From the IMG/VR virus record IMGVR_UViG_3300046050_000015: a DNA stretch of 64,000 nt, one strand, 5' to 3'. The notes beneath the pieces were generated by a model, which searched no databases, had not been told where the DNA came from, and worked only from the letters and a program-made list of their open reading frames with translations. The translations under genes were made by a program, and so were the position numbers. This document shows, piece by piece, positions 3,856 through 32,936 of the stretch (within the stretch, counting starts at the first letter, position 1; each line of letters begins with the position of its first letter). The stretch comes from an uncultured virus (IMG/VR IMGVR_UViG_3300046050_000015) (Duplodnaviria > Heunggongvirae > Uroviricota > Caudoviricetes).

Positions 3856-4271
3856 AATTCAAATACTCCGTTTTGTTCGGTTTCTGGGTTGGTATTTTCT
3901 TCTATGGTACTACCATAGATGAAGAATTCAGTAGAACCTTCCCTGGGCATCTCAGTAACTTCAGACACACAACATTCATCGAAACCAATAACCATCCCAC
4001 TTTCGGTGTGGGAAATGCCAAAGAATGTCTCTAAACCAATATCATTCATAGCCCTAAGCATTCGCCCAATAGCACTACTTCTTTCAATAATGGTCGTGAG
4101 GCTATACGACCGCCGATGAGACTCCCGTCTACGGCTGGAGTGCTTGATTGTGGAGTTTATTTGCTCTACACCAGCGTTCCGAACTTCATAAACTGGTCCC
4201 TCATCCTGAATAGGAAACTTCGATTCGCCAATGTGTAGATAGCCGTAGATTTCGTTATCAAAACTAATCAC
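3852..4271 (-). CDS. hypothetical protein
   Basis: coupled to the CCA enzyme gene. Confidence 0.6.
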   Translation of the reverse strand: MISFDNEIYGYLHIGESKFPIQDEGPVYEVRNAGVEQINSTIKHSSRRRESHRRSYSLTTIIERSSAIGRMLRAMNDIGLETFFGISHTESGMVIGFDECCVSEVTEMPREGSTEFFIYGSTIEENTNPETEQNGVFEL

Positions 4272-5644
4272 GGTACTTCCCTCCGGAACTCTTCACCGAG
4301 CTGGTCTTGGTGTTGTCGAATGTACTCAGTATCCCTTTCAATGGCCTCCCTCACGAACATGTCGAGGATAAGTTTTCGGTTCAGACTGGGGTCATTATCC
4401 ACGATGGTACGCAGGGTGGAGAGGATGCCTCCAACCATGGGCCCAGGGTCGATGTACTCCAATACGTCGTCGCCGCTGATAGCTAACTCTGGAGGCTCAA
4501 CCCCGTCCTCGTTCATCAGTTCAAGCATGGACTTGATACGAACCGCCCGAGCCAGGCTATCTTGTTTGCCATGAGCCATCAGGTCAGCAACTCGAAGATT
4601 CACCAGGTCCTCAAACTCCTCATCCGAGTCAACCTTACGTCGGAGTCGACGAACGGCCTTCTTGAGATTGTGCTCGGGTTCGAACATGTGAAGATGAACT
4701 ATCCGAGCCACCCTCTCCACATCGTCGTTAGAGAACCGGAGTCGGCGCAGATATCGTTGGACGATGCGTTCGCTATCTTTCTCGTGCCCATAGAAGTGTG
4801 GGTCGTCAGGGTCACCATTGTAAGCATCTACCTTACCCACGTCGTGGAGAAGGGTAGCAAGGCGTAACAGCGGTTGGCTTGAAGGAACCTGTTTTGCAGC
4901 CTTTGTAGAATGTACCAATGGACCATGCTCGTGGTGCTCGTCGGGGTGAGGCAGGTATGCAAGCTCGTGCAATTCGGGTGGGAACAAGTCGTCGTGGAGA
5001 TTCGTGTTCATCGCCGCACCCACGAGTAGTTCCACGTCCCCGGTCATGGCTTTCATCAACTCTTCACGGATGCGTTCCTCTGCGATGGAATCAAGGTTAG
5101 TTTCCTTGATGGCTTCCAGGGTATCGTCACCGATGGAGAATTGGTAGGTAACCGCGAACCGAAGCGCCCGGAGAACTCGTAACTGGTCTTCGTCGAAGCG
5201 TTCTCGTGGCTCACCCACGGTGGAGATTCGTTGCCTGGCCAGGTCGTGTTGACCGTTGAATGGGTCAACGAGGGACCCATCGGCCATGTTTACGGCCATC
5301 GCGTTGATGGTGAAGTCACGTCGCTTCAAGTCCTCGCGGATATTGTTGGCGAACTCTACATCGTCGGGTCGGCGATTGTCGGAGTAAGTGGATTCGGTGC
5401 GGTAGGTGGTAATCTCGGCCTCTTCATCGTCGCGGTGGACAAGAATGGTACCATGGTCGATACCTACGGGCTTCAGGTCGGGAAAAACTTCAAGCATTTC
5501 TTGGGGGGTTGCATCGGTGGCGTAGTCAATGTCGTTGCTTTCCTTGCCAAGCATACGGTCCCGTACCGCGCCGCCGACGAGGTAGCACTCGTAACCGGCG
5601 CCGAGTAACTCATCCGCGATAGTTGACTCGTGTAGTAGATTCAT
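4268..5644 (-). CDS. cca: class II CCA tRNA nucleotidyltransferase with HD domain
   Basis: LVGGAVRD, DIDYAT, DLKRRDFTINAMA, EDQLR motifs; HD domain LLHDVGK...FYGHE. Confidence 0.9.
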   Translation of the reverse strand: MNLLHESTIADELLGAGYECYLVGGAVRDRMLGKESNDIDYATDATPQEMLEVFPDLKPVGIDHGTILVHRDDEEAEITTYRTESTYSDNRRPDDVEFANNIREDLKRRDFTINAMAVNMADGSLVDPFNGQHDLARQRISTVGEPRERFDEDQLRVLRALRFAVTYQFSIGDDTLEAIKETNLDSIAEERIREELMKAMTGDVELLVGAAMNTNLHDDLFPPELHELAYLPHPDEHHEHGPLVHSTKAAKQVPSSQPLLRLATLLHDVGKVDAYNGDPDDPHFYGHEKDSERIVQRYLRRLRFSNDDVERVARIVHLHMFEPEHNLKKAVRRLRRKVDSDEEFEDLVNLRVADLMAHGKQDSLARAVRIKSMLELMNEDGVEPPELAISGDDVLEYIDPGPMVGGILSTLRTIVDNDPSLNRKLILDMFVREAIERDTEYIRQHQDQLGEEFRREVP

Positions 5645-5683
5645 TGTCACAACAAATGCCTTCAAACAATAAAAGTGTTTAGA

Positions 5684-8334: not shown

Positions 8335-8511
8335 TTAGGCCGAGGCAACTAGACCTACCAGGAACCCAAAGATGACGATTGCGCCACCAAGGGTTGCACT
8401 AATCCAGAGTGGTGATAGGACCCATAGCCAAGACCAACCAATCGTACCTGTGAGCTTCAGCACAAGGAATAGTAGGGTCAACACTACCGGAAGACTAACA
8501 CTTGAGGACAT
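8335..8511 (-). CDS. small membrane protein (MSSSVSLPVVLTLLFLVLKLTGTIGWSWLWVLSPLWIS...)
   Basis: 58-aa ORF read manually; LKLTGxIxWSWxWVLSPLW pattern is common in small phage membrane proteins. Confidence 0.7.
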   Translation of the reverse strand: MSSSVSLPVVLTLLFLVLKLTGTIGWSWLWVLSPLWISATLGGAIVIFGFLVGLVASA

Positions 8512-8634
8512 CTTAACTCACCTACAGAGTGAAGGTGGCTCAAGACTTAAAGGATTTACGGTTGGTCATGTAGACCCCAACCCTCAACTACGGACCCAGT
8601 GATTCAACGCAAATGACTCACCACAGTGAGTCAA

Positions 8635-8708
8635 AGGTCTCGACAGGACTCGAACCCGCAATGGCCCGATTAGAAGTCGGGTACGTTATCCAGTTTCGTC
8701 ACGAGACC
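8635..8708 (-). tRNA. tRNA-Arg(UCU)
   Basis: cloverleaf; CCCGA-CT-TCT-AA-TCGGG; GGTTCGAGTCC. Confidence 0.9.
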
Positions 8709-8710
8709 AA

Positions 8711-8784
8711 TGCACTCGACCGGATTCGAACCAGTGACTTCCAGGTTCGCAACCTGGCGTCCTCATCCACTAGACCACGAGCGC
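8711..8784 (-). tRNA. tRNA-Arg(GCG)
   Basis: CCAGG-TT-GCG-AA-CCTGG; GCG anticodon is archaeal-type. Confidence 0.9.
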
Positions 8785-8785
8785 A

Positions 8786-8888
8786 TGGTGGGTGAAGATT
8801 CCTTGTCGTCTTCGTTACCTGCGGTCGGTGAGTCGACCTTGAAATCTACGAATAGCAGAACTTCTCTCGATTCGGAATCCTCAACCCA
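8786..8888 (-). ncRNA. unknown structured RNA ending in CCA
   Basis: 5' TGGGTTGAGGATTCC pairs with 3' GGAATCTTCACCCA, followed by CCA. Confidence 0.5.
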
Positions 8889-8889
8889 G

Positions 8890-8992
8890 TACGCCCGACC
8901 GGACTCGAACCGGTAATCACCCCCGTATCAGGTGGGCGGGGTTACCCCGGCGGCTCATAAAACCGCTGCCTTGCCAATTTGGCCACGAGCGT
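8890..8992 (-). tRNA. atypical tRNA, anticodon UAU, about 35-nt variable region
   Basis: acceptor ACGCTCG/CGGGCGT-A; GCGGT-TT-TAT-GA-GCCGC; T arm ACCGG-TTCGAGT-CCGGT. Confidence 0.8.
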
Positions 8993-8996
8993 ATAA

Positions 8997-9068
8997 CGGC
9001 CCCCAGTGGACTCGAAACACCATCGCCTGGGTAACAACCAGGCATGCTACCAATTACACCAGGGGGTC
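8997..9068 (-). tRNA. tRNA-Asn(GUU)
   Basis: CCTGG-TT-GTT-AC-CCAGG; imperfect T stem. Confidence 0.8.
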
Positions 9069-9070
9069 AG

Positions 9071-9146
9071 TACGCCTGGCCGGATTTGAACCGGCGACTT
9101 CTGATATATCAGACCAGCGTCTTAAGCCAGACTCGACCACAGGCGA
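9071..9146 (-). tRNA. tRNA-Ile(GAU)
   Basis: CTGGT-CT-GAT-AT-ATCAG; U1-U72 mismatch. Confidence 0.85.
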
Positions 9147-9147
9147 G

Positions 9148-9221
9148 CGCACCCGGCAGGATTCGAACCTGCGGCCACCCGGTTAACAGCCGGGGGCTGT
9201 CGGCCTCTTAGCTACGGATGC
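9148..9221 (-). tRNA. tRNA-Asn(GUU), second copy
   Basis: CCCGG-CT-GTT-AA-CCGGG. Confidence 0.85.
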
Positions 9222-9224
9222 GAG

Positions 9225-9316
9225 CGCCGCCGAACGGATTCGAACCATTATGCCCCGTTTCTCAGAGGCACACGCTTTCCAGGCGTGCGAGCTAGACCAG
9301 GTTGCTCAACGGCGAC
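9225..9316 (-). tRNA. tRNA-Ser(GGA)
   Basis: CACGC-CT-GGA-AA-GCGTG, long variable arm, G73. Confidence 0.9.
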
Positions 9317-9324
9317 AAATGGAG

Positions 9325-9416
9325 CGCTGCCGAGCGGATTCGAACCACTACACCCCATCTTGCAGAGGTACCAGGATAGCAACCTGGCGAGCTAGACCGA
9401 ATTGCTCAACGACAGC
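9325..9416 (-). tRNA. tRNA-Ser(GCU)
   Basis: CCAGG-TT-GCT-AT-CCTGG, long variable arm, G73. Confidence 0.9.
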
Positions 9417-9425
9417 ACGTGTGAA

Positions 9426-9513
9426 CGCCGCGGACAGGGGTCGAACCTGTAAACCCGTAAGGGCGTCCCGCTTTCAAGGCGGGCACAGTCGCCAGCTATC
9501 TGTTTGCCACGGC
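9426..9513 (-). tRNA. tRNA-Ser(UGA)
   Basis: CCCGC-CT-TGA-AA-GCGGG, long variable arm; atypical C8 and D arm. Confidence 0.85.
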
Positions 9514-9521
9514 AAGATGAG

Positions 9522-9595
9522 TGCATCCCACCGGATTCGAACCGACATCATGTCCGGTCTTCAGCCGGGCGCCTCCCAGGTTGGGCCAGGGATGT
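9522..9595 (-). tRNA. tRNA-Phe(GAA)
   Basis: CCGG-CT-GAA-GA-CCGG; A1-C72 mismatch. Confidence 0.85.
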
Positions 9596-9598
9596 AGA

Positions 9599-9670
9599 AG
9601 CTAGTGCCAGGAATCGAACCCTGGATTACCTCCTTACGAGGGAGGTGTCTTACCGTTGGACCACACCAGC
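9599..9670 (-). tRNA. tRNA-Thr(CGU)
   Basis: CCTCC-CT-CGT-AA-GGAGG. Confidence 0.9.
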
Positions 9671-9671
9671 A

Positions 9672-9743
9672 AGCCACCACCCGGACCTGCACCGGGCTCT
9701 GCTCCATACCAGGGAGCTACATCGCTATCTATGCTTTGGCGGC
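9672..9743 (-). tRNA. tRNA-Thr(GGU), non-canonical T and D loops
   Basis: GCTCC-CT-GGT-AT-GGAGC; T loop TGCAGGT. Confidence 0.8.
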
Positions 9744-9829
9744 AGATAAGGATTGCTGTTTGCCTTTTGTTGGCGGAGCGGTTGTAGGTTCTAAGCTATT
9801 CCAATAGTGCTAGAAGCACTATTAAAGTG

Positions 9830-9899
9830 GGTGAACCTACGGGAGTCTGAAGCCGTGCAGAAGAAATGGGGGCACATAGCTTCAGACATCACATTCACC
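9830..9899 (-). ncRNA. hairpin RNA with pyrimidine-rich loop
   Basis: GGTGAA/TTCACC, GTCTGAAGCT/GGCTTCAGAC, GTGC/GCAC stems; starts about 20-25 nt below a TTTTAAAT box. Confidence 0.45.
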
Positions 9900-9913
9900 G
9901 TATGTTTCTCCAC

Positions 9914-9928
9914 CCATTTAAAAGTTTG
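9914..9928 (-). promoter_or_regulatory. archaeal BRE/TATA promoter inside the tRNA array
   Basis: AAACTTTTAAATG on minus strand. Confidence 0.5.
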
Positions 9929-9963
9929 GTTCAACTCCCCCCCCCCCCACTACAGGGTATGAG

Positions 9964-10054
9964 TGGCTCCGGCAGGATTCGAACCTGCGATAGGGTCGCT
10001 ATGTCCCGAATTTAAACCGGGTGCCTTCGGCCAGACTCGGCTTGCCACGGAGCC
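9964..10054 (-). tRNA. tRNA-Leu(UAA)
   Basis: CCCGG-TT-TAA-AT-TCGGG, long variable arm, 4 extra nt before D stem. Confidence 0.85.
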
Positions 10055-10087
10055 ATAAGTGAAGATAAAAGACAAGGGCAAAAAATG

Positions 10088-10183
10088 TTACGACCCAATG
10101 GCCCACAAGACAAACCATAGGGCAAACGCTAGCGCTCCCATCAAAATGAGGTAACCGAACACGACCTTCAAGAACACTTTCAT
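10088..10183 (-). CDS. 31-aa single-helix membrane peptide (MKVFLKVVFGYLILMGALAFALWFVLWAIGS)
   Basis: hydrophobic ORF read manually between two tRNAs. Confidence 0.45.
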   Translation of the reverse strand: MKVFLKVVFGYLILMGALAFALWFVLWAIGS

Positions 10184-10199
10184 CCTCCTTATGGTCAGT

Positions 10200-10219
10200 C
10201 AACCATAAATTTATGGTTG
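10200..10219. promoter_or_regulatory. perfect 20-bp palindrome, possible operator/promoter
   Basis: CAACCATAAATTTATGGTTG. Confidence 0.45.
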
Positions 10220-10240
10220 GTGAACCTTCGAACAGTAAGG

Positions 10241-10313
10241 GGTCGGGACCGGGATTCGAACCCAGACCAGTGGGGTCACAGTCCACTATGCTAACCATTA
10301 CACCACCCCGAAC
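10241..10313 (-). tRNA. tRNA-His(GUG)
   Basis: GTGG-A-CT-GTG-AC-C-CCAC; encoded G-1 opposite C73. Confidence 0.85.
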
Positions 10314-10323
10314 CAAGGTGAAG

Positions 10324-10397
10324 AGTCCCCGACAGGACTTGAACCCGCAACTTCTTGGTTCGAAGCCAAGCGTCCTATCCGATTAGACCACGGGGAC
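10324..10397 (-). tRNA. tRNA-Arg(UCG)
   Basis: CTTGG-CT-TCG-AA-CCAAG. Confidence 0.9.
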
Positions 10398-10400
10398 GAG

Positions 10401-10484
10401 AGGGCCAGGAGGGATTCGAACCCCCGGGGGATTGCTCCGGCGGGTTAAAAGCCCGCTGCCCTACCGTGCTAGGCACACTGGCCC
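10401..10484 (-). tRNA. tRNA-Lys(UUU) with long variable arm
   Basis: GCGGG-CT-TTT-AA-CCCGC; variable hairpin GGA-GCAA-TCC. Confidence 0.85.
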
Positions 10485-10493
10485 TACCATGGG

Positions 10494-10652
10494 AGCATGA
10501 ATCGTCGATATACCCACTGGAGCTTGGATGGGTCCCCAAGGTACGCCTCTACCCAAGTAATCGCCTGCTCTGGTCCCTCATCGAAACCGATTCGACGAGC
10601 CCGAGCATACACATACCCAAGGTGTATCGGGTAAAATGGAGACGATTCAGCT
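10494..10652 (-). ncRNA. unknown multibranched structured RNA
   Basis: closing stem AGCTGAATCGTC/GACGATTCA(T)GCT; hairpins CTCGTCGAA/TTCGATGAG and ATACAC/GTGTAT. Confidence 0.55.
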
Positions 10653-10682
10653 ACCGGTGGGGTTGGCGGCTTGTCATGCAAG

Positions 10683-10754
10683 TGGGCCTACCCGGAGTCG
10701 AACCGGGCACTGGAGGTTAAGAATCTCCCGTCCTGACCACTAGACCATAGGCCC
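10683..10754 (-). tRNA. tRNA-Lys(CUU)
   Basis: GGAG-A-TT-CTT-AA-C-CTCC. Confidence 0.85.
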
Positions 10755-10757
10755 AAG

Positions 10758-10830
10758 TGGGGGACCTAGGATTTGAACCTAGAGCCACTGCTTCCAAGGC
10801 AGCAATGTTTCCAAGTTACACCAATCCCCC
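10758..10830 (-). tRNA. tRNA-Pro(UGG)
   Basis: GCTGC-CT-TGG-AA-GCAGT; A37. Confidence 0.85.
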
Positions 10831-10859
10831 GGGATGAGATACGGTAATCTAAGAACGTC

Positions 10860-10961
10860 GACGATTCGGTGTCAGCCACAAGAAGAGTTTCGACACCCTA
10901 CGCTGAAGCTTTAGGGTGCGGATGTTTCCGGGGTGGCTGCTTCCGGAACATCTGAATCACC
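10860..10961 (-). ncRNA. unknown RNA with predicted pseudoknot or kissing loop
   Basis: P1 GGTGATTC/GAATCGTC; P2 GATGTTCCGG/CCGGAAACATC with loop CAGCCAC complementary to downstream GTGGCTG; P3 CACCCTA/TAGGGTG. Confidence 0.55.
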
Positions 10962-10971
10962 CTATGTGGTT

Positions 10972-11520
10972 TCAGGTATTTAACTCTTCACCTTCGGCCT
11001 TGTGGAACTTTGGCTCATAAGAATCATATTCTTGTAGTTCCCAAAGGACCTTCGGATAATGACAGTTCACGTACTGTGTCCCGAAATCGATAACCTTACT
11101 CTGGGTACGGATGGTGAACAGAAGGTAGTTCTCGCCTTCCTTTGGTCCCCACACACCATCACCTACCGCCTCCGTCCACTTTTCCTTGTCGGCTTGGATG
11201 AAGGGGGTGTTGGTTTCATAGTCCGCACTTGAGACTTCCTCAACCTCTTCACCAATGGCTTTATAGTTGCTAGGTCTATCATCCACCACTCCGTTGTTGA
11301 CTTCAGCAATGTACCAGTTATCGTTCCAAGAGTACTCATACGTCTTACTCTTAATAACAATATGACATTCGTTATTATTCCTACCTAAGTGAAGAACGGT
11401 GGTCGTTACACGTTGACTGATTCCTCGAAGGAATTCACCTTCCAGGTCGTCAAAGGTCCATCCATGGTCTACGATGGCCCCAAAGTATGGGACATCGGTA
11501 ACCACACTCGAATCGACCAA
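10972..11520 (-). CDS. hypothetical protein inside the tRNA array
   Basis: 182-aa acidic ORF; start uncertain (poly-G run just upstream). Confidence 0.55.
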   Translation of the reverse strand: MVDSSVVTDVPYFGAIVDHGWTFDDLEGEFLRGISQRVTTTVLHLGRNNNECHIVIKSKTYEYSWNDNWYIAEVNNGVVDDRPSNYKAIGEEVEEVSSADYETNTPFIQADKEKWTEAVGDGVWGPKEGENYLLFTIRTQSKVIDFGTQYVNCHYPKVLWELQEYDSYEPKFHKAEGEELNT

Positions 11521-11583
11521 CCTACTGTATGCGCGGGGGGGGGGGTATAGCGGTTAGATGAAAGACAGAATTCGGTTGTTAAG

Positions 11584-11673
11584 AGCTTGGAGGGAGATTT
11601 GACCTCCCATTNNNNNNNNNNCCCATTCTTCCGGTTACAAACCGGCTGCCTTATCCAGTTTAGCCATCCAAGC
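11584..11673 (-). tRNA. tRNA-Thr(UGU), interrupted by assembly gap
   Basis: CCGG-TT-TGT-AA-CCGG; AATGGG repeated either side of N run; T loop GTCAAAT. Confidence 0.75.
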
Positions 11674-11706
11674 AATCTTCACATCTACCATCTAAGATAC
11701 CCGAAA

Positions 11707-11811
11707 TAGCCCCGGCAGGATTCGAACCTGCGTTGGGCGATATCTTCAGCCCACAGGGAATGCCTGGAAGCTTCCAAAGTCGCCCTGGATTGGCCACTAC
11801 CATACGGGGCA
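11707..11811 (-). tRNA. tRNA-Gln(UUG) with 32-nt BHB intron at 37/38
   Basis: GGCGA-CT-TTG-G[AAGCTTCCAGGCATTCCCTGTGGGCTGAAGAT]A-TCGCC; central helix CTTT/GAAG flanked by two 3-nt bulges. Confidence 0.85.
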
Positions 11812-11812
11812 G

Positions 11813-11887
11813 TTGGACCACCCGGATTCGAACCGGGGTTGAACCGATGTAAGCGGCACGTGATAAGCCAGGCTACACTATGGTCCA
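11813..11887 (-). tRNA. tRNA-Val(UAC)
   Basis: GCCG-CT-TAC-AT-CGGT. Confidence 0.85.
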
Positions 11888-11888
11888 A

Positions 11889-11977
11889 TGGTACCGGCTG
11901 GATTCGAACCAGCGATGAGGTCTCTATGTCCAGGGTCTCGACCTGGTGGGTTCGACCAGACTCCCCGCCACGGTACC
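11889..11977 (-). tRNA. tRNA-Leu(GAG)
   Basis: CCAGG-TC-GAG-AC-CCTGG; C33, A37; long variable arm. Confidence 0.85.
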
Positions 11978-12018
11978 AAGATGAAGCAGATGAAGCACAT
12001 GACATATAGCCATAATGC

Positions 12019-12031
12019 TACTTAAGGTTTT
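12019..12031 (-). promoter_or_regulatory. archaeal BRE/TATA promoter
   Basis: AAAACCTTAAGTA on minus strand; variants recur upstream of many genes. Confidence 0.55.
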
Positions 12032-12084
12032 ATGTAGAGATTTCACCGATATCGTTTAGTTGGGCCCCAATGCCAGGGGTCCAA

Positions 12085-12158
12085 AGGGACGCATGGAACT
12101 CGAATCCATCTACCAAGACTTTGGAGGTCTGGCGGATGCCATACTACCTTAGCGTCCC
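12085..12158 (-). tRNA. tRNA-Trp(CCA), intronless
   Basis: AGAC-CT-CCA-AA-GTCT. Confidence 0.8.
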
Positions 12159-12162
12159 AGAG

Positions 12163-12233
12163 TTTACCCGACCCGATTCGAACGGATATACCGAGGTTTA
12201 CAGCCTCGGCGGTTCACATTACCTCACGGGTAG
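12163..12233 (-). tRNA. tRNA-Tyr(GUA), short variable loop
   Basis: CGAGG-CT-GTA-AA-CCTCG; C1-A72 mismatch, D loop lacks GG. Confidence 0.75.
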
Positions 12234-12235
12234 AG

Positions 12236-12310
12236 TGGAGTTGACCGAACTTGAACCGGTGGCCGTGTCCTTGCAAGGGACCTGTTCTGGCCAATTGGAA
12301 CTACGACCCC
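12236..12310 (-). tRNA. tRNA-Ala(UGC)
   Basis: GTCC-CT-TGC-AA-GGAC; G3-U70 present. Confidence 0.85.
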
Positions 12311-12312
12311 AG

Positions 12313-12383
12313 TGCGTCGAGTCGGATTTGAACCGACGGCGTCAGCTTGGAAGGCTGACATGTTGCCCCTACACCATCGACGC
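12313..12383 (-). tRNA. tRNA-Gly(UCC)
   Basis: TCAGC-CT-TCC-AA-GCTGA. Confidence 0.9.
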
Positions 12384-12388
12384 ATGAG

Positions 12389-12478
12389 TTGTGGGCCCTG
12401 GACTTGAACCAGGAGTTCCCCAGGTTATGAGCCTGGTGCCTTATTCCATGTCTCTCGACATTATTTGGCCAGCCCACA
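12389..12478 (-). tRNA. tRNA with CAU anticodon (Met or Ile2), hairpin inserted in D loop
   Basis: CCAGG-CT-CAT-AA-CCTGG; D loop contains ATGTC-GAGA-GACAT. Confidence 0.8.
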
Positions 12479-12481
12479 AAA

Positions 12482-12555
12482 TCGCGGCCAGTGGATTTGA
12501 ACCACCAGTTGGGGCTTATGAAACCCCCGCCCTCTCCAGGTTAGACCAAGCCGCG
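12482..12555 (-). tRNA. tRNA with CAU anticodon (Met or Ile2)
   Basis: GGGGT-TT-CAT-AA-GCCCC. Confidence 0.85.
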
Positions 12556-12586
12556 AATCGGATTGTAAATATTTGTGATTTGGTTA

Positions 12587-12661
12587 GCGCCGCCCGCAGG
12601 ACTTGCACCCGCAGCGTCCGGTAGACAGCCGAACATGTTTCTAACTTACACCAGGAGCGGC
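12587..12661 (-). tRNA. tRNA-Asp(GUC), atypical
   Basis: TTCGG-CT-GTC-TA-CCGGA; U37; T loop TGCAAGT; bulged acceptor stem. Confidence 0.75.
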
Positions 12662-12698
12662 AAGTGCGGGTCGCTACCTTCCCAGGTCGTGCCCGCGA

Positions 12699-12773
12699 AG
12701 GTGCTGGCAGGATTTGAACCCGCGTATCCGGGGCGAAAACCCAGAATGATTGGCCGGACTACACTACAGCACC
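12699..12773 (-). tRNA. tRNA-Glu(UUC)
   Basis: CTGGG-TT-TTC-GC-CCCGG. Confidence 0.85.
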
Positions 12774-12775
12774 AG

Positions 12776-12852
12776 TGGACCCCCACAGATTTGAACTGTG
12801 AGCCTTCCCCAAGCCAAGAGGGCGTCTTCAACCTGGTTTGGACCAGGGGCCC
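12776..12852 (-). tRNA. tRNA-Ala(GGC)
   Basis: CCTC-TT-GGC-TT-GGGG; G3-U70; U37. Confidence 0.8.
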
Positions 12853-12877
12853 ATAGATGGAGGGCGTTTAACCTCCG

Positions 12878-13173
12878 CCCCACAGGAGGACCCTTAGCAC
12901 TCCACACCAATGGTGTTTCAACGTACCTGTTTCGGGTTTCCCAGGCCAGCTAGCCCTACCCGACACGGTTATCCCGTGCCGAATGGGCGACGAAGTGCTA
13001 GTTCACACAACCCACCGTTCCCGGGGTCAAGGGTACCGTGCCAATCGTGGTGGACAGGCCGTCCGGGAGCCATCCCGGTAAAGGGTTGCTTCACCTGGGC
13101 GTGCAGGCCGCCGAAGAGCATGGGTGGGCTATCTTCGGTCTGGTTAACGTGTTCCCAAACCGCACCTGCGGAG
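12878..13173 (-). ncRNA. large (about 296 nt) structured RNA of unknown class
   Basis: terminal stem CTCCGCAGG/CCTGTGGGG; internal stems TAGCACTTC/GGAGTGCTA, TTCGGCACGG/CCGTGTCGGG, CCGAAGA/TCTTCGG, CCGGGA/TCCCGG; fills the gap between two tRNAs. Confidence 0.65.
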
Positions 13174-13262
13174 TGGATGCGGGTGGATTTGAACCACCGA
13201 TAGGGTCGCTATGTACGGGTTCTAAGCCCGTTGGGTTCGACCAGACTCCCCGCCACGCATCC
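13174..13262 (-). tRNA. tRNA-Leu(UAG)
   Basis: ACGGG-CT-TAG-AA-CCCGT; long variable arm. Confidence 0.9.
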
Positions 13263-13263
13263 A

Positions 13264-13296
13264 TGGTGGGACGAGACATGTATGTAGTTCGTCCCA
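13264..13296 (-). ncRNA. minihelix-like hairpin ending in CCA
   Basis: TGGGACGA-14nt-TCGTCCCA-CCA directly upstream of first tRNA. Confidence 0.35.
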
Positions 13297-13311
13297 TAAG
13301 TATGTTTGGTT

Positions 13312-14754
13312 TTAGTCAGCCTTCAGGTTGAGAATGGGGTCAACTCGGTCGACAATCTCCACCGTGGGACCGATAGCTTCCTCGATAAGGCCGGGGTCTT
13401 TGTAGGCCCCGGGAATTTCATCGATGGGCGCCTTCGAGGTGTAGACTCCTTCGGTCTGTTTGTCGAAGTCGTCCTCATCGAATCGGCGCTCGGCATCCCG
13501 ACGGCCCATGGCTCGACCCGCACCGTGTGGGGCGCTGTTGTTCCAACTCGGGTCACCCTTACCGCGACAAATGAGAGTCCCATACTCGATGTTGAACGGG
13601 ATGATGACAAACTTATCTTGGTGGGCCCGACAAGCACCCTTCCGAATCGTGGAGTCGTCGAAGTCAATATAGTTGTGGACCGACGATACCGCGTCGTTGA
13701 TGTAATCGAACGATTCTCCAAGTGCCGTTGCTACGCCTTCAGCCATGATACGACGATTTTCCTCGGCGTAGGTTTGGGCGAAAATCATGTCACGGATGTA
13801 CCCGTGCGTCTCTTCACCCTCCAAGTAGTCCAGGTCCTCGTTACGGTTAGTGCTCTGGAGTTGGTGGACGATTGTCTTGAGTTCTTCGCGAATCTCACCG
13901 ATGCGCTCTGGTTCGGTCTCTCGATAGTCGGCCTTGAGGGCTTCGTAGTTGACGAAATCTTCACCCATGGAACCGTGAATCCAATCCAGAATCTCGTGGT
14001 TGGGTGTAGAGTAGGGGTTGAATTTCACGTAATCGTCGTATCCTTCCTCCACGATGTCGTCGAGCCAGTGATTCATCGTGTCGAAGTTGCGTAGTTCTGT
14101 GGCGCGGTCCATCCAGTATTCGGCGATGCTGAGGCCAAGGCCGCGGCTACCGGAGTGAATGATGCACCATAGGTCTCCGCTCTTCTCACCTTTTCCAAGC
14201 TCGATGAAATGATTGCCCCCACCAAGCGTGCCGACGCTTTGGGCAGCTCGGCTGGGGTCGTAGCCTACGCGGTCGAGGAGTTCGTCGTAGTAGTCTGGCC
14301 CGTAATCGGTCTCGACATGGAAGTCGTTGTGCTTGCTCTCGTTGAAACGCTCAAGCTTGTGTTGACAGAGGCTATAGGGAAAGTCGTTGTGCATGTGGTA
14401 CACGGCGTCGCCATGGACATCGAATCCCATGGGCACCTCTTCACGGATGCGCTGGTCAAGTTCTTCCACGTTGCCGAGTCTAGTTCGGCGGAAATTGGCC
14501 GCCAGCATGCCGCACCCAATATCTACCCCCACCGTTCCGGGGACAATGCGGTTACCGAGAGGTTTAGTGAACCCAATAACGGCCCCGGCTCCCCAATGTG
14601 CGTCAGGCATAATGGTAATGTCGTCGTCACCAACGAACGCTTCGTGGTTTACCATTTCCTGAATCTGTTCCATGGCCTCACCTTCGATTTCTTCCACCTT
14701 TACATCCGCGGTATTGTATTTTCCTTCAACAATCATTGGCCCAGTCCAACCCAT
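13312..14754 (-). CDS. rtcB: RtcB RNA ligase (tRNA splicing/repair)
   Basis: MPDAHWG, VGVDIGCG, GTLGGGNHFIE, IHSGSRG, HNY, SAPHGAGR, DEIPGAYK; start may be 14736. Confidence 0.95.
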   Translation of the reverse strand: MGWTGPMIVEGKYNTADVKVEEIEGEAMEQIQEMVNHEAFVGDDDITIMPDAHWGAGAVIGFTKPLGNRIVPGTVGVDIGCGMLAANFRRTRLGNVEELDQRIREEVPMGFDVHGDAVYHMHNDFPYSLCQHKLERFNESKHNDFHVETDYGPDYYDELLDRVGYDPSRAAQSVGTLGGGNHFIELGKGEKSGDLWCIIHSGSRGLGLSIAEYWMDRATELRNFDTMNHWLDDIVEEGYDDYVKFNPYSTPNHEILDWIHGSMGEDFVNYEALKADYRETEPERIGEIREELKTIVHQLQSTNRNEDLDYLEGEETHGYIRDMIFAQTYAEENRRIMAEGVATALGESFDYINDAVSSVHNYIDFDDSTIRKGACRAHQDKFVIIPFNIEYGTLICRGKGDPSWNNSAPHGAGRAMGRRDAERRFDEDDFDKQTEGVYTSKAPIDEIPGAYKDPGLIEEAIGPTVEIVDRVDPILNLKAD

Positions 14755-14793: not shown

Positions 14794-15447
14794 TCACAAG
14801 CTTAGTTCGTCCTTGGGGATATATTCTCGGTCCCAGGACTGGTCACTTGTGTCGAACCGAACGTACTGGTAGGGGTCGTCCCACATTTCGTCCATTGGTG
14901 GCAAGCTAATGATGTGGGTTCCATTGATGTACCTCTGGTCCGGCTCGTGGATATGTCCATGGACGTAAAGGTCGGGGTCTACCATGTCGGCGACTTGACA
15001 GAAGTAATCTTCACCAGCCTTCTCATACCACGGCTTGTCGTGGGTGATGAGGACATCGGAACCGTAGAGACACTTGATTAACTCCTCGTCCTCTTCGGTC
15101 CACATGCGGCGGTCCTCACCGAGGTAATAGAAGTTCTGCAATGCCCATTCGCATTTCTCGATGCCACCAAGGAACCCAAACTCTACACCACCGAAGGTAA
15201 TTTTCTTGTAGTCGTCCACGAACCGTTTCGTGTAGGGCATCTGGTAGTCGTTGTTTCTCCACCCGTTGAGCTTACCGAAGTGCTCGTGGTTTCCACGGAT
15301 AAAGAACATGGGTGTAGATGTGGATTCCTGGTAGGCGTAGTGGTCCCCTGCCTGTAGGAGGATGTCTAATCCTTCTTGTTCGGCTAGGATGTCAGCTTTG
15401 CGGATACCCTTGCGTCCGTGTACGTCACCGACAATGCCGATAATCAT
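14794..15447 (-). CDS. calcineurin-like metallophosphoesterase
   Basis: GDVHG, AGD, RGNHE, ITHD, HGHIH. Confidence 0.9.
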   Translation of the reverse strand: MIIGIVGDVHGRKGIRKADILAEQEGLDILLQAGDHYAYQESTSTPMFFIRGNHEHFGKLNGWRNNDYQMPYTKRFVDDYKKITFGGVEFGFLGGIEKCEWALQNFYYLGEDRRMWTEEDEELIKCLYGSDVLITHDKPWYEKAGEDYFCQVADMVDPDLYVHGHIHEPDQRYINGTHIISLPPMDEMWDDPYQYVRFDTSDQSWDREYIPKDELSL

Positions 15448-15938: not shown

Positions 15939-18923
15939 CTAGAGTCCCAGGTCCTGGCCGCGACGACTGAAGCGACTACGATGCTTCGAGTACCCCTTGC
16001 GCTTCTTGGAGCGCAAGTTGATAACCCTCACAGGGTCCTTACTGTGTTCGCGGATGTAGGTAAACGCCATAGCCATTGCGTCCACTCGGTCGTCACTTGC
16101 CCCCTCCCCACCGGAAGGCGTGAAGGAGAGCAATTCGTTGATTGTCTGTTCGTCCCGCATGTTGAGCCATACCTTTCCGTTCTTGAGCGCCGTGAGTAGG
16201 CCACTTTCGACCAGGTAAGTGTCTTTATCCTTGGTCTTCGACACGGGTTCAAGCGGTAGAATCTCACGCGAGCGCTGGTGGAGAGAATCGCTAAGTCCCT
16301 TCTGGAAGCCTTGGCTCTCCACGACGATAGCCCGTGGAGTCGTGTAATTCCGTTTCTCCTGCATGTATTTGGATTCGATGAGGTCAATAATCTCTTCGAA
16401 ATCCCACTTGCCAGCCTGCACATCGAAGAACACGTCATTGTCCGTGGTGCGGATAGCTCGCGCGAAGGCCGTGTTGTCGTTTTCACTGTTCTTCCCTACG
16501 GCTAGGTCCCAGGCGTGAACGATGGAGTGTAGGTCGTTTTCGCGTGGAGAGCCGGCAACCTTGGTGTCACAATCGTAGGGTGGGTAGTCGCCAACGTGTT
16601 CTCCTACGGGGTCGTAGAAGTTCATCATCGGCTCCTTGAAGCGATGTTCACCACTACCGACAATCTTGAGCAAGTACTGGCTCTGGAAGGCGGTCCGGTC
16701 TTCAAGCATTTGCAAGATGAGCCATTCCGCTGGCCGGTGTTCACCAACCAAGTCGTAGTGCTCGTCGGATTGGTAGGGACAGTTACCGACCCCGAATGGG
16801 CAACCCCAAAGCGTTTCAATTTCGTTGACACCACGGGGTGTGAGTTCGATATCAACAACGACGCCGTTGTCGTCTTCTTCGATGTTGAAGTGAACGTTTT
16901 TCCTGGGGGGTTTCGGCTTTCCCCTGATGGTCAACGCGGGGCGCTCGACGACGTGGAATTGGTTCTGCTTCTTGATGAGGCGGTCGTAAAGGTCACCATG
17001 ATAGTATCGGGTGCCTAGGACATAAACCTGAGAGTCGCGGTTCAGCGTCCCGACAATCGTTTCTGCCCAGAAGTCCCAGAGTTCTTGCCGAAGGTGTTGG
17101 GTCTTGCTATTTTCCTTCGTCACAACGTCGTCCATAATCACGATGTCTGGGTGCATGCCGGTAATATCACCCTTTGGACCCGCGCCGTATAGGGTGTGGT
17201 CCTTCGATACCGATTTTCTGGATGGGAGGTTGATGGTGTCTTCGTTCCACTTAGTAGCTTTGTCGGAAATGTCATCACCGAAAGCTAAGTGGATAAGGTT
17301 GCTTGCTCCCCCGGTTTCGAACTCTTCACGAATGGCCTTCACGGTTGCCTTGGCGGCGCTAGCACTTTCTTGAATGAGGAGAATGCTTACGTCCTCGTAC
17401 TTGGTGTCTGGGATAGTGGAGTAGCAAATGTGGTGAATGGGGAGGGCTTGGGCAATCATAGACGAGTTATGGCTAACAAACCCATCTGCAACGAAGTTAT
17501 GGTATTCTTCCGTTTCAATATCGTAGACCTTGCTTTCCCCTACTGATTCAATACTTTCAACTTCAATCCATTCAATAGGAGAGTCTAGCAAGTTAAGGAT
17601 TTGTTCGTTCTCTTCCCGCTCAGCCACCCGTCGAACTTTTTCCTTGGTGGTTCGATAGTTGTTACTAATTTTGTCTCCAGCCTTTTTATGCTGGAAGCTT
17701 GACCATTCTGTCAAGTCTCTCCATGAGGGTGGCATCAGTTTCCATTCACTGGTATCATATTCCCAGTCTTTGGTTTGCTCGTACAATTTTTCCAGTTGGT
17801 CTTCCTTTCCGAGGATTCCAACCTCTTCCTTGAATTTTTGAATGTTCTCTTTGCCACCAATGGTTAAAACGTGTACGGTTTCGTATTCTTCGCCATCAAA
17901 GACACCCGGTTTTGTGCACCTGGTGCCAGTGATTCCGAACTGTAGTAATAGGTCTTGGAGGTCATCAACGAGTTGCTCACTAGCTGAAGAATATCCGATA
18001 TTACCTGCATCCATCGCCACATACCCGTCTCCGCCAAAGATGGTTGCAAGGAACTTGGCAATCGTTTGCTTCTTGGCTCTAAAAACGGAATCAGGAACTT
18101 GAACGTTGTACGTTGTATATTTCTTTATGTTGTTCTCTTTAAGAAGTTTTCTTGGGTCTTTGTCAGTAACCTTGATTGTATGGGTATAACCATCTGAATG
18201 GGGACCACTTACTTCATAACCTAACGCCTCTGCACACCGTTTTACCTCCTTGGTTATATCTTCGTTACCATTTGAGAATTGGAAAGAGTCCATGGCCTTG
18301 CACCCTTCAGCCAAGTATATGGCAAGCAGGGTTGCTTCTTCAGGTGCTAGGTCTCCATGCCCATCGTTGCTGTATTTTGACGGCATTGCAATGTAATCCT
18401 CACCTGGTTTAATCTCCTTTACTGTCTTCCATCCGTCAAAAGTGAGGAATCGATGCTCCTCGGTTGCCTTTACTACCCTCCCAACCTTCGACTCAAGCCT
18501 AAATAATTCTTTCTCATTCTCTTCTTTCGCCACTACAACATCTGTTTCTTGGGTCAAGTCCCCACTGAAACTTACTACCTCATCTCCAGGTTTTACATCT
18601 TTTACTTTCTTTTTCGTCATATCTCCGAGAATAACGTCGGTTTCCGGACACCCGCATTTGCTATGCGAACGCGCTTGGAGAAACATCGAACGGTCATACT
18701 TCTGCGCCTCATCGAAGTAGTCGACAAAGTGGGGCGCGATGTCAAGACCAAGGAAAAGGTAAGCAAAGAGGGGAATGTTCTCGTAGGATAACTCGACGGC
18801 CTTTTTGATGAAGGCTTCATCATCCTCCTGCCGTCGATATCGAACCAGTTCGTTCCACTCGTCCTCGTCCACAACGTCGTAATAAACAGGCTGTGGCTCC
18901 TCTAACCGCTTGGTTTCGTCCAT
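15939..18923 (-). CDS. terminase large subunit with intein
   Basis: Walker A ARSHSK|S, ITGMHPDIVIMDD, LGTRY, nuclease WDLA..DNTA..VVESQGFQ..DDRVDA. Confidence 0.9.
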   Translation of the reverse strand: MDETKRLEEPQPVYYDVVDEDEWNELVRYRRQEDDEAFIKKAVELSYENIPLFAYLFLGLDIAPHFVDYFDEAQKYDRSMFLQARSHSKCGCPETDVILGDMTKKKVKDVKPGDEVVSFSGDLTQETDVVVAKEENEKELFRLESKVGRVVKATEEHRFLTFDGWKTVKEIKPGEDYIAMPSKYSNDGHGDLAPEEATLLAIYLAEGCKAMDSFQFSNGNEDITKEVKRCAEALGYEVSGPHSDGYTHTIKVTDKDPRKLLKENNIKKYTTYNVQVPDSVFRAKKQTIAKFLATIFGGDGYVAMDAGNIGYSSASEQLVDDLQDLLLQFGITGTRCTKPGVFDGEEYETVHVLTIGGKENIQKFKEEVGILGKEDQLEKLYEQTKDWEYDTSEWKLMPPSWRDLTEWSSFQHKKAGDKISNNYRTTKEKVRRVAEREENEQILNLLDSPIEWIEVESIESVGESKVYDIETEEYHNFVADGFVSHNSSMIAQALPIHHICYSTIPDTKYEDVSILLIQESASAAKATVKAIREEFETGGASNLIHLAFGDDISDKATKWNEDTINLPSRKSVSKDHTLYGAGPKGDITGMHPDIVIMDDVVTKENSKTQHLRQELWDFWAETIVGTLNRDSQVYVLGTRYYHGDLYDRLIKKQNQFHVVERPALTIRGKPKPPRKNVHFNIEEDDNGVVVDIELTPRGVNEIETLWGCPFGVGNCPYQSDEHYDLVGEHRPAEWLILQMLEDRTAFQSQYLLKIVGSGEHRFKEPMMNFYDPVGEHVGDYPPYDCDTKVAGSPRENDLHSIVHAWDLAVGKNSENDNTAFARAIRTTDNDVFFDVQAGKWDFEEIIDLIESKYMQEKRNYTTPRAIVVESQGFQKGLSDSLHQRSREILPLEPVSKTKDKDTYLVESGLLTALKNGKVWLNMRDEQTINELLSFTPSGGEGASDDRVDAMAMAFTYIREHSKDPVRVINLRSKKRKGYSKHRSRFSRRGQDLGL
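17466..18656 (-). mobile_element. intein (397 aa) with LAGLIDADG homing endonuclease
   Basis: starts Cys (CGCPETDV), block B ATEEHRF, LLAIYLAEG and FLATIFGGDG, ends VYDI..HNFVADGFVSHN|S; lower GC than flanks. Confidence 0.92.
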
Positions 18924-22249: not shown

Positions 22250-22933
22250 TTATAGGAGACTTTTGACACCGCCCCGTTGTTCAGCCTGTCGTAACCGAAC
22301 AAGCCAATTTCGTAAACGTTCTTCATCAGGCTCTTCTTGAAGGGTGGAGTTCCCCTTAGCCTCCTCCAGTTCGTCCACCTCGTCAAGGATGTCGTTCCAT
22401 TTAACTGTCTCAGGATTAACGGCGTAGAACCATAACCCTTCGTCACGGAACACCCTCTTCACGCACCGGACTATGCGGAGAATCTTCGCAGCTCGGTGAG
22501 GGTTCGCATCTTCTGTTCCCTCGTATTTATGATAGCTACTGAGTGCCATCCCCTTGGCCGAATCGAAAAGTGACAGCGATAAATTTTCCTCTACGATTTC
22601 TCGCAGGTTCCACATACGCTCGTCTGCGTATTCGACCTTGGGTGAGAGCAACCGAAGTGTGTTGTTGATGTTTCCCTTACAAATGAGGTTGAGTGTGTGT
22701 TCGATTTCGTGAAGATGAAAATCGTACTCATCACCTGCAATATCCTCGAACCAATCGTAGGTCGTTTTATTCGCCGTACCACCAAGGAAACGTTCAGTTG
22801 GTTCAAGGTAAACCATGTGATAGTCGTAGTCGGAACCTTCGTGCTCCATTCCCCACATTCGGGAACCGACAAGCGAGCGGAAGATGAGCCGGTCTCGGGC
22901 ATCTTCCTTCGTAAAACTATCGGTAGCGTCCAT
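22250..22933 (-). CDS. Pol-beta family nucleotidyltransferase (RlaP/YcgL-like)
   Basis: LVGSRMWGMEHEGSDYD; KGNINN..LLSP. Confidence 0.8.
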   Translation of the reverse strand: MDATDSFTKEDARDRLIFRSLVGSRMWGMEHEGSDYDYHMVYLEPTERFLGGTANKTTYDWFEDIAGDEYDFHLHEIEHTLNLICKGNINNTLRLLSPKVEYADERMWNLREIVEENLSLSLFDSAKGMALSSYHKYEGTEDANPHRAAKILRIVRCVKRVFRDEGLWFYAVNPETVKWNDILDEVDELEEAKGNSTLQEEPDEERLRNWLVRLRQAEQRGGVKSLL

Positions 22934-24960: not shown

Positions 24961-25539
24961 TTAGGCTTTTGGGGTACTCCACTCACTGTTTCCAAGATGG
25001 TTAACCACACAAACCAACAGTTCGACGGCTTGCCTAGCGTCCCACAAGGCGTTGTGCTCTCGCTCGTTGGAGGTGATGTCCTTATAGAAGCGTTTGTGTG
25101 TCTTCTCAGGTTCGTCTTCTACGTAGTCCACGATGGATAACGCTGTGTTGAGTTCGCGGACCTCGTAGTCGAATAGGGCGTCTAGGCGGGGCATTTGTTC
25201 TTCGACGAATTGCATGTCGAAGCCGCCGACGTTGAACCCGATGGCGATGTGGTCATCGGTCTCGATGCCGGTGGTTTCTTTGAGCCATTCAGCAGCAATG
25301 AGGTCAGCTTCATCGATAGTGGGGTTCTCGGGGTCATTAATGTCACCCCATTCGATATCGTTGATGGCCATAGCTTGGTCTTCCCATTCGATGGTCCCGG
25401 GGTAATGAATCTCGGCGTACCACTCTTCACCCGTGCGTGGGTGGACCATCCCAAGACTTAACAGGCTGTGTTCATCTTCGTCGACCCCAGATGTTTCGAT
25501 GTCAAGAGCGACGAGGCGATTCGGCACGTCTCGGTCCAT
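24961..25539 (-). CDS. DEDDh (DnaQ-like) 3'-5' exonuclease
   Basis: LDIETSG, GFNVGGFD, HNALWDA. Confidence 0.9.
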   Translation of the reverse strand: MDRDVPNRLVALDIETSGVDEDEHSLLSLGMVHPRTGEEWYAEIHYPGTIEWEDQAMAINDIEWGDINDPENPTIDEADLIAAEWLKETTGIETDDHIAIGFNVGGFDMQFVEEQMPRLDALFDYEVRELNTALSIVDYVEDEPEKTHKRFYKDITSNEREHNALWDARQAVELLVCVVNHLGNSEWSTPKA

Positions 25540-25540
25540 G

Positions 25541-25819
25541 TCAATAGTAGAGGTCAACGAAGTCGTCAATCATCGTCATGAATGCCGCCGTACTTCCTAG
25601 AGCCTTCGTTGCATCTGCATCGTCGTTAATGTCAAGCTCTGATAGTGCTTCGAGGTACTTCTCAATGGCATCGTCCACATCCAGGTTTTCGGCTTCGGAG
25701 GCATCTTCGAAGTCAAACCGTTGAAGATAGAAATCTACCCCCTCAAATGCGTTGTTCTCCTCGAACATATCCTCCGCGAAATCGTAGAGTAACTGTGTCT
25801 GTAACTGGGAGCGTTCCAT
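25541..25819 (-). CDS. hypothetical protein
   Basis: acidic ORF. Confidence 0.55.
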   Translation of the reverse strand: MERSQLQTQLLYDFAEDMFEENNAFEGVDFYLQRFDFEDASEAENLDVDDAIEKYLEALSELDINDDADATKALGSTAAFMTMIDDFVDLYY

Positions 25820-31520: not shown

Positions 31521-31746
31521 CCTCCATGTTTAGGGGACGTTCAAGCCATTTGAAACCACAGCGCTGACATCGACGAAAGATGTGTGCATCCTTTCGGTCT
31601 GTTACTCGGCTCTGGTTTGGTACGTCGGTACCACAGTTATATGTACAATCCCATTTGCTACTATGGTATTGTGTGGTTATTTCAACGTGTCCACAAGCTC
31701 TACAGTTGGCATCATCGTCGTATGGTTCAAGTGTCATGGTAACCAT
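31504..31746 (-). CDS. Zn-ribbon protein
   Basis: CRACG..CQRCG. Confidence 0.55.
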   Translation of the reverse strand: MVTMTLEPYDDDANCRACGHVEITTQYHSSKWDCTYNCGTDVPNQSRVTDRKDAHIFRRCQRCGFKWLERPLNMEGGVED

Positions 31747-32698: not shown

Positions 32699-32936
32699 TT
32701 GTATGGTGAAGAGTGGGGGACCCACTTAATCGTTACGATTCCCAGGTCGGAGAAGCATCCTTGAAGCCTAACTCAACNNNNNNNNNNCCCACTCGTCCGT
32801 GGGTGGAGATTGGAGGCTAGCGATGGCGTCCTCGACAACGTAGACCTCATAACCACGCTCAACCAATCCACTCTCCACTCATGTCGAACCGTACATGTCC
32901 GTTTACCTTGTTAAGACTTTCGATAGTGGAGAGTAT

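Follow-up and report, generated by a model that had tools for sequence, protein, structure and literature searches.

Our analysis of the 64,000-nucleotide window, by which we mean the whole stretch of DNA analysed and which belongs to a tailed virus that infects haloarchaea and has not been cultivated, points to a candidate non-coding RNA (ncRNA) of 296 nt on the minus strand (12878..13173). Its minimum free energy (MFE) is −131.5 kcal/mol, it is apparently non-coding, and it belongs to no Rfam family. We put at about even the chance that it is a virus-encoded structured ncRNA of an undescribed class, transcribed together with a minus-strand tRNA operon. The stretch may reasonably be proposed as a new class of viral RNA, located in a genomic niche of a type already known; this proposal is plausible and credible but unproven, since only two near-identical copies of the RNA exist.

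The candidate RNA, read from 13173 to 12878, lies near an RtcB gene and inside a tRNA array of 4.6 kb (8635-13262, all on the minus strand), in which ARAGORN and Rfam identified at least 24 tRNA genes. The RtcB RNA ligase gene (13312..14754, minus strand; Pfam PF01139, E 2.2e-59) is located directly upstream of the tRNA-Leu and the RNA on the same strand, and its product is closest to those of haloarchaeal viruses, with 51% identity to HGTV-1 and about 45% to HCTV-1, HCTV-5, and HCTV-16. The tRNA-Leu(UAG) is a class II tRNA with a long variable arm (13174..13262, minus strand; Rfam RF00005, 49.5 bits), whose anticodon loop, CUUAGAA, reads Leu(UAG). ARAGORN called it as tRNA-Leu(tag) at 13175-13256 with -ps80, and with default settings gave only a mirror call on the plus strand. 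No CCA is encoded in this gene, and its discriminator A abuts the 5′ end of the RNA, in agreement with the sequence-only reading that had let the RNA begin at the base after the discriminator. The same reading had placed the RNA between this tRNA-Leu and a tRNA-Ala(GGC). The first neighbour was confirmed, but the second is a weak tRNA-like element with a GGC anticodon (12775..12852, minus strand), which was called only by ARAGORN at -ps80 and was not matched by the Rfam tRNA model at E ≤ 10. It is also 25 nt further off, being separated from the proposed 3′ end by a tail with a GGAGG/CCUCC hairpin (12853..12877, minus strand). The spacing at the other tRNA junctions within the array is only 1–10 nt. 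All sequencing runs containing the stretch were halite metagenomes, and a check for expression found no RNA sequencing run among them.

The tRNA array is surrounded by an RNA-maintenance toolkit, all of it on the minus strand: a bacterial-type CCA-adding enzyme with an HD domain (4268-5665), RtcB (13312-14754), a metallophosphoesterase (14794-15447), an RlaP-type nucleotidyltransferase (22250-22933), an Rv2179c-like 3′-5′ exoribonuclease (24961-25569), and a DHH/DHHA1 protein (31727-32725). ThyX and a portal protein are also encoded in the window. The gene of the terminase large subunit, upstream of RtcB (15939-18923, minus strand), has an intein with a LAGLIDADG homing endonuclease domain. 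No relatives of the terminase, the portal, or the CCA-adding enzyme were found among IMG/VR or phage records, which indicates that this virus is far from anything catalogued.

The array has further features of its own. In the gap at 11674-11812 we found a probable tRNA (11700-11806, minus strand) whose anticodon arm holds a long insertion; it folds into an acceptor stem, a D-arm, and a T-arm with the loop GGUUCGAAUCC, and was called neither by ARAGORN nor by Rfam. Judging from this predicted fold it is likely an intron-containing tRNA, consistent with the adjacent RtcB ligase. In the tRNA-Glu (12699-12773, minus strand), a second halite metagenome has 51 other letters replacing 20 at 12725-12746, and this difference may be an intron or insert polymorphism between two virus populations. 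Two small hydrophobic ORFs were noticed by eye in or at the edge of the array, one at about 8335-8513 and one at 10088-10183 (both minus strand), the latter of 31 aa and with AAGGAGG ahead of its start. A run of N (11611-11621) falls within the tRNA call at 11584-11673, and long G and C homopolymers occur in array gaps at about 9934-9946 and about 11526-11535. These are possibly masking or assembly artefacts, able to affect local tRNA calls. A second array gap of about 293 nt (9671-9963, minus strand) had no tRNA or Rfam match and a fold z score of −2.03, and a covariance model of the 3′ domain of the RNA, described below, gave no match to it.

Folding of the whole RNA gave a z score of −2.35 for the minus strand, which 2 of 200 shuffles equalled in stability, and of −0.30 for the plus strand. 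Two further long gaps in this array had z scores of −2.03 and −2.22, close to that of the RNA. The ends of the RNA had been described as pairing with each other, and they do: CUCCGCAGG and CCUGUGGGG form 9 bp (7 Watson-Crick and 2 G-U) in the MFE fold. The 5′ strand of this terminal helix, P1, is at 13165..13173 (RNA 1-9) and its 3′ strand at 12878..12886 (RNA 288-296), both on the minus strand. An end helix of at least 9 bp was found in 18 of 1000 dinucleotide shuffles (P = 0.018). The MFE fold has well over the six internal helices that had been proposed as a minimum. Among these are hairpin A (RNA 11-38; 13136..13163, minus strand) and the long-range helix B, whose 5′ strand (RNA 42-51; 13123..13132, minus strand) pairs with RNA 158-167 (13007..13016, minus strand). 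A consensus fold of the two known sequences retains P1, hairpin A, helix B, and the whole 3′ domain.

The best-supported part of the RNA is this 3′ domain of 106 nt (RNA 174-279; 12895..13000, minus strand). A closing stem of 9 bp leads to a four-way junction whose three arms are all hairpins: one has 15 bp and a GAUAA loop, another is bulged, and the remaining one has 5 bp. The domain gave a fold z score of −4.35, with none of 200 shuffles as stable, and its complement strand one of −2.29. Because the 3′ domain had been picked from the fold, the same choice was repeated in a control on 186 random segments of the window, each 296 nt long. A closed domain of 90–125 nt was present in 110 of them; 3 of these 110 control domains were at z ≤ −4.35, and none was as low as −5.01, the score given to the target by the control script. 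The 3′ domain is within the top ~3% of selection-matched control domains. It looks like the functional core of the RNA.

The RNA had been called highly structured as a whole. This description holds for the 3′ 106 nt but not for the 5′ part, as the 5′ domain (RNA 40-169) folds like its shuffles (z −1.17; 29 of 200). The structural signal rests mainly on the 106-nt 3′ domain and the end helix. In the 5′ part, a possible pseudoknot had also been proposed, in which a hairpin loop is complementary to a distal segment. The complementarity exists: AGCCCACC (RNA 44-51) can pair with GGUGGGUU (RNA 158-165), and the loop carrying AGCCCACC belongs to an alternative hairpin of 7 Watson-Crick base pairs (RNA 36-42/57-63; 13111..13138, minus strand). 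But 8-bp complementarities of this kind are equally common in shuffles (6 observed against 5.2 ± 3.1), and in the MFE fold the two segments lie, without a pseudoknot, nested within the 10 bp of helix B, whose strands contain them. The alternative hairpin competes with parts of the MFE fold. When the hairpin was forced and the pseudoknot strands were left free, the constrained fold had −115.6 kcal/mol, to which the pseudoknot duplex would add about −12.8; the sum is comparable to that of the nested MFE fold, but the constrained fold disrupts the 3′ domain.

A natural variant of the RNA was found in the second halite metagenome, which belongs to a different study and in which contigs of about 90% identity cover the whole stretch. 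These contigs keep the gene order, with the same tRNA-Leu, RtcB end, and tRNA-like element. Within the RNA, 26 substitutions were listed (21 transitions and 5 transversions), 23 of them in RNA 1-166 and 3 in RNA 167-296, the list leaving out differences within about 33 letters of the ends of contig pieces. Since the junction of two contigs lies at 12959-12975, the segment 12944-12990 (RNA 184-230) may contain up to about ten differences that are not listed, and the 3′ part can be said with confidence to diverge little only in RNA 231-296 (2 of 66 positions) and RNA 167-183 (1 of 17). The 3′ domain has two listed substitutions (RNA 181 and 263), with RNA 184-230 incompletely readable. The 5′ part differs at 23 of 166 positions (~14%), which is about the rate of the neighbouring spacer: the 49 nt before tRNA-Leu contain 5 substitutions and 2 indels. 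There are 3 substitutions in the 89 nt of tRNA-Leu and 3 in the last 89 nt of RtcB.

The substitutions of the variant tend to preserve pairing. Fifteen of them are at positions paired in the MFE fold; the pair is kept in 11 cases and broken in 4, all of the latter in the 5′ domain. Changes between G-U and A-U or between G-U and G-C occur in four helices: G5-U292 to A5-U292 in P1, C12-G38 to U12-G38 in hairpin A, G45-U164 to A45-U164 in helix B, and one in the closing stem of the 3′ domain. A double change, A40-U59 to G40-C59, was found in the middle of the perfect 7-bp hairpin (RNA 36-42/57-63), the one that the sequence-only reading had proposed. We compared the variant with random placements, in which the 26 listed substitutions, keeping their types, were placed 1000 times, domain by domain. 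The variant's own MFE was −134.0 kcal/mol against −124.9 ± 5.0 for these placements (P = 0.043), and its energy on the reference structure was −118.6 against −103.1 ± 7.4 (P = 0.017). By random placement, a double change within a Watson-Crick helix of at least 7 bp occurred in 2.3% of cases (P = 0.023), and the same statistic was not significant with G-U pairs allowed (P = 0.47).

Analysis on coding potential agreed with the earlier statement that no convincing ORF is present. The longest minus-strand ORF within the stretch has 50 aa, and its AUG is altered in the variant (13120 A>G). On the plus strand, two ORFs of 97 aa run antisense through the tRNA-Leu. One of these, at 12910-13203, has its ATG changed to AAG in the variant (12911 T>A), so that two of the three overlapping ORFs of at least 50 aa lose their start codons there. 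In the frame of this ORF, 11 of 24 changed codons were synonymous against a null of 6.2 ± 2.2 (P = 0.033, uncorrected); the test covered six frames, and the excess is not significant after correction. The predicted product would be a basic protein with many Pro, Arg, Trp, and Cys residues, and it had no homologue among 5.8 billion protein clusters. With start codons lost in the variant, no homologue, and a synonymous excess in one frame only, a protein-coding gene is unlikely.

We then compared the RNA with known families. The search against Rfam 15 (4227 models), which the sequence-only reading had suggested, was run at the gathering score and at E ≤ 10 on 801 nt and on 321 nt. No family was found in 12878-13173 at either threshold, and the sole row of the 321-nt search was a 12-bit chance match of a snoRNA (E 8.9). 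This excludes recognisable RNase P, SRP, tmRNA, 6S, GOLLD, ROOL, and YrlA RNAs, as well as recognisable group I/II introns and small ribozymes, and agrees with the view taken from the letters that there is no RNase P, SRP, tmRNA, or group I signature. A tRNA or intron-bearing tRNA was rejected because ARAGORN, with introns allowed and at -ps80, found nothing inside the stretch, and the Rfam tRNA model matched nothing even partially. A tmRNA was likewise rejected, as none was found with default ARAGORN or in Rfam; a "permuted tmRNA" call of ARAGORN at -ps80 uses the neighbouring tRNA-like element, and we regard it as spurious. Archaeal RNase P RNA is improbable for want of a match to any RNase P model and for the position of the 106-nt domain, which is 3′ of the long-range helix in every fold; the specificity domain of RNase P RNA is nested within P4/P5. 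The conserved-region motifs of RNase P (CR-I and CR-V) are not evident in the RNA.

A Y-RNA-like partner was considered because RtcB adjoins the RNA and HGTV-1 encodes a TROVE protein. No YrlA match was found in the stretch, however, and no TROVE domain in the 36 ORFs scanned, so a Y RNA or YrlA is improbable. BLASTP of two unknown proteins of ~500 aa against the HGTV-1 TROVE protein gave E values of 0.4–0.8, which is no match, and Rfam showed no YrlA match near the HGTV-1 TROVE gene. A scan of 12700-13330 for the bulge-helix-bulge (BHB) motif of splicing gave 14 weak matches, none of them at the end helix. There is therefore no support for the idea that splicing endonuclease and RtcB excise and circularise the RNA. 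As for GOLLD and ROOL, the location in a viral tRNA island is shared by the RNA, which lies in an array of at least 24 tRNA genes, but the family consensus and the length of at least 580 nt are not, the RNA being 296–321 nt.

Our search for homologues in hypersaline material and elsewhere, another check proposed from the sequence, found the one variant of about 90% identity with its mostly pairing-preserving substitutions, and no further homologue in any collection searched. With distant settings, blastn found nothing real in 50,697 phage records or 72,556 plasmids. BLAST of the RNA found nothing in HGTV-1 or 5 IMG/VR records, and blastn and nhmmer found nothing over 84 loci. A covariance model of the 3′ domain, built from a single sequence, gave nothing elsewhere in the window, in HGTV-1 and 3 IMG/VR records, or in 82 loci. 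Pattern scans of viral contigs gave 3 chance matches in an unrelated phage coding region and none in further scans, and a pattern scan of genome contigs gave one chance 21-mer in a Spirochaetia MAG. Relatives of RtcB were found at 12 loci in viral contigs (best identity 45%) and at 67 loci in metagenome contigs (best 50%). The neighbourhood of RtcB was checked with ARAGORN at 18 of these loci; none had a tRNA array, and only two had single tRNAs.

The tRNA region of HGTV-1 (NC_021328) has unannotated gaps of 183, 348, and 349 nt, none of which was linked to the RNA by BLAST or the single-sequence covariance model. The gaps at 49760-50107 and 52999-53347 each lie beside a homing endonuclease gene, one of the HNH and one of the LAGLIDADG type. 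The accessible portion of PMC13532342 mentions no such RNA for HGTV-1.

Several explanations compete with that of a structured ncRNA. A minor but real share of the probability goes to a non-functional spacer, made of decayed tRNA genes or leftover inserted DNA, in which GC-rich sequence folds well by chance and selection acts on the neighbouring tRNAs alone. This would account for a whole-stretch z score that resembles those of other array gaps, for 5′ 166 nt that diverge at the spacer-like ~14% and fold no better than shuffles, for a length of about four tRNAs, and for the failure to find a homologue in any collection searched. However, the Rfam tRNA model flags weak partial tRNAs in other gaps and none here (E ≤ 10), the 3′ domain combines a z score of −4.35 with few listed changes, the end helix is itself uncommon in shuffles (P = 0.018), and the substitutions of the variant spare the fold. 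We consider it rather unlikely that the stretch is instead a cis-acting part of the tRNA operon transcript, such as a processing spacer or a separator of the downstream tRNAs, which could, for example, order or time the cleavages by RNase P and RNase Z. Its location inside a densely packed operon, an end helix that brings both flanking tRNA junctions together, and the lack of any oligo-T run within the stretch would fit such a role, but the other junctions of the array, at 1–10 nt, need no such element, and a four-way junction of 106 nt would be an elaborate structure for such a role.

The RNA could also belong to a known class from which it has diverged greatly, for example RNase P RNA, SRP RNA, group I introns, or the Y RNA partners of RtcB/Ro60 modules, but this appears improbable. 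In favour of it, archaeal RNase P and SRP RNAs have a similar length of ~300 nt, the long-range helix, which follows a purine-rich linker, might loosely resemble P4 of RNase P, RtcB adjoins, and the relative HGTV-1 encodes a TROVE/Ro60 protein. Against this, no Rfam model of these classes matched at E ≤ 10, even on 321 nt; the domain order is unlike that of RNase P, with a large second domain outside the P4-like helix; the long helix 5 of SRP RNA is missing; and none of the 36 ORFs contains TROVE, the two ~500-aa unknowns being unmatched to that of HGTV-1. Least of all do we expect a small protein gene, for which the plus-strand ORF at 12910-13203 is the most plausible candidate. Its synonymous excess (11 of 24 changed codons; P = 0.033 uncorrected) does not survive the six-frame correction, its ATG becomes AAG in the variant, it runs antisense through tRNA-Leu, and no homologue was found among the 5.8 billion clusters. 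Halophile proteins are typically acidic, unlike its basic product.

The reading as an ncRNA is favoured by the strand-asymmetric fold, by a 3′ domain in the top ~3% of the controls and an end helix at P = 0.018, by a syntenic copy of ~90% identity whose substitutions spare the fold and include A40-U59 to G40-C59, by ORFs that lose their start codons and a 97-aa ORF without a homologue, and by a tRNA-Leu without encoded CCA in a window that has a CCA-adding enzyme. Against it, there is one close variant only and hence no real covariation test, the signals, though several and independent, are each modest (P 0.02–0.04) and come from two sequences, and the variant differences are partly unlisted. 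The whole-stretch z score is no better than those of two other array gaps, and the 5′ domain is like shuffles and diverges like a spacer, with 4 of 15 paired substitutions breaking pairs. The compensatory-helix statistic with G-U pairs (P = 0.47), the synonymous excess in the frame of ORF 12910-13203, and the doubtful status of the downstream tRNA needed for the RNase P cut also count against it. The earlier claim of a new viral ncRNA thus stands in part: non-coding character, a strand-specific fold, the absence of an Rfam family, a setting in a tRNA array without CCA, and kept synteny all speak for it.

In archaea, tRNase Z cuts CCA-less pre-tRNAs after the discriminator, and RNase P removes their 5′ leaders. 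If the stretch is indeed an ncRNA, a tRNase Z cut behind the discriminator of tRNA-Leu would set its 5′ end at 13173, and an RNase P cut at the 5′ end of the next tRNA or tRNA-like element (12852, or else 12773) would set its 3′ end. The released RNA would have 296–321 nt, or about 400 nt if the tRNA-like element is unrecognised. The 9-bp end helix might then shield the termini, and the 3′ domain would be the functional core, by our preferred guess a platform to which a protein or another RNA binds, with the 5′ 160 nt as a fast-evolving accessory part. By analogy with the large RNAs in tRNA islands of bacteriophages, the function of the RNA is probably tied to the tRNA supply and RNA repair module around it (RtcB, CCA-adding enzyme, RlaP, and exoribonuclease). 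A fuller reading has an appreciable, though clearly less than even, chance of holding in all its parts together: the RNA would be the first large structured ncRNA class of an archaeal virus, a counterpart of GOLLD and ROOL of bacteriophages, excised by host tRNA-processing enzymes and composed of a conserved four-way-junction core and a fast-evolving 5′ domain, which may form a pseudoknot with that core.

Compared with known systems, the RNA resembles archaeal RNase P RNA in its similar length, its terminal helix, its early hairpin and long-range helix, and the presence of pre-tRNAs needing 5′ processing. It differs in that its large 3′ domain is outside the long-range helix, not inside, and in that no model matched. 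Y RNA and YrlA occur with Ro60 and RtcB operons in bacteria and some phages. Like them, the RNA is an apparent ncRNA that lies near RtcB, pairs its ends, and contains a four-way junction module, but it has no T-arm-like loop, its length is about three times theirs, and the window lacks a TROVE gene. Non-tRNA transcripts are released at tRNA punctuation marks in mitochondria and in the case of MALAT1/mascRNA; the maturation proposed here, by tRNA-processing cuts at flanking tRNAs, would be analogous in processing only.

To our knowledge, large structured RNAs of viral tRNA islands, namely GOLLD and ROOL, are found in bacteriophages only, and their function is unsolved. If an unrelated RNA occupies this niche in an archaeal virus, this would suggest that a folded RNA among viral tRNAs is a recurrent strategy across domains. 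The niche here also holds an RNA ligase, a CCA-adding enzyme, and other RNA-repair genes, and a core of ~110 nt would offer a small object for structural and binding studies. GOLLD and ROOL are roughly 580 to over 800 nt long and have bacterial hosts, whereas the RNA here is ~300 nt with an archaeal host, has no Rfam match, and is known from two copies, without covariation. What they share with it is that they are virus-encoded, are non-coding, and lie in or beside tRNA islands. The layout of GOLLD, as given in the available part of its description (10.1101/2024.12.08.627333), is a conserved 3′ and a variable 5′ part, and the RNA here, with few listed changes in its 3′ part against 23 in its 5′ part, is similar to GOLLD in this respect, as far as that part of the description goes.
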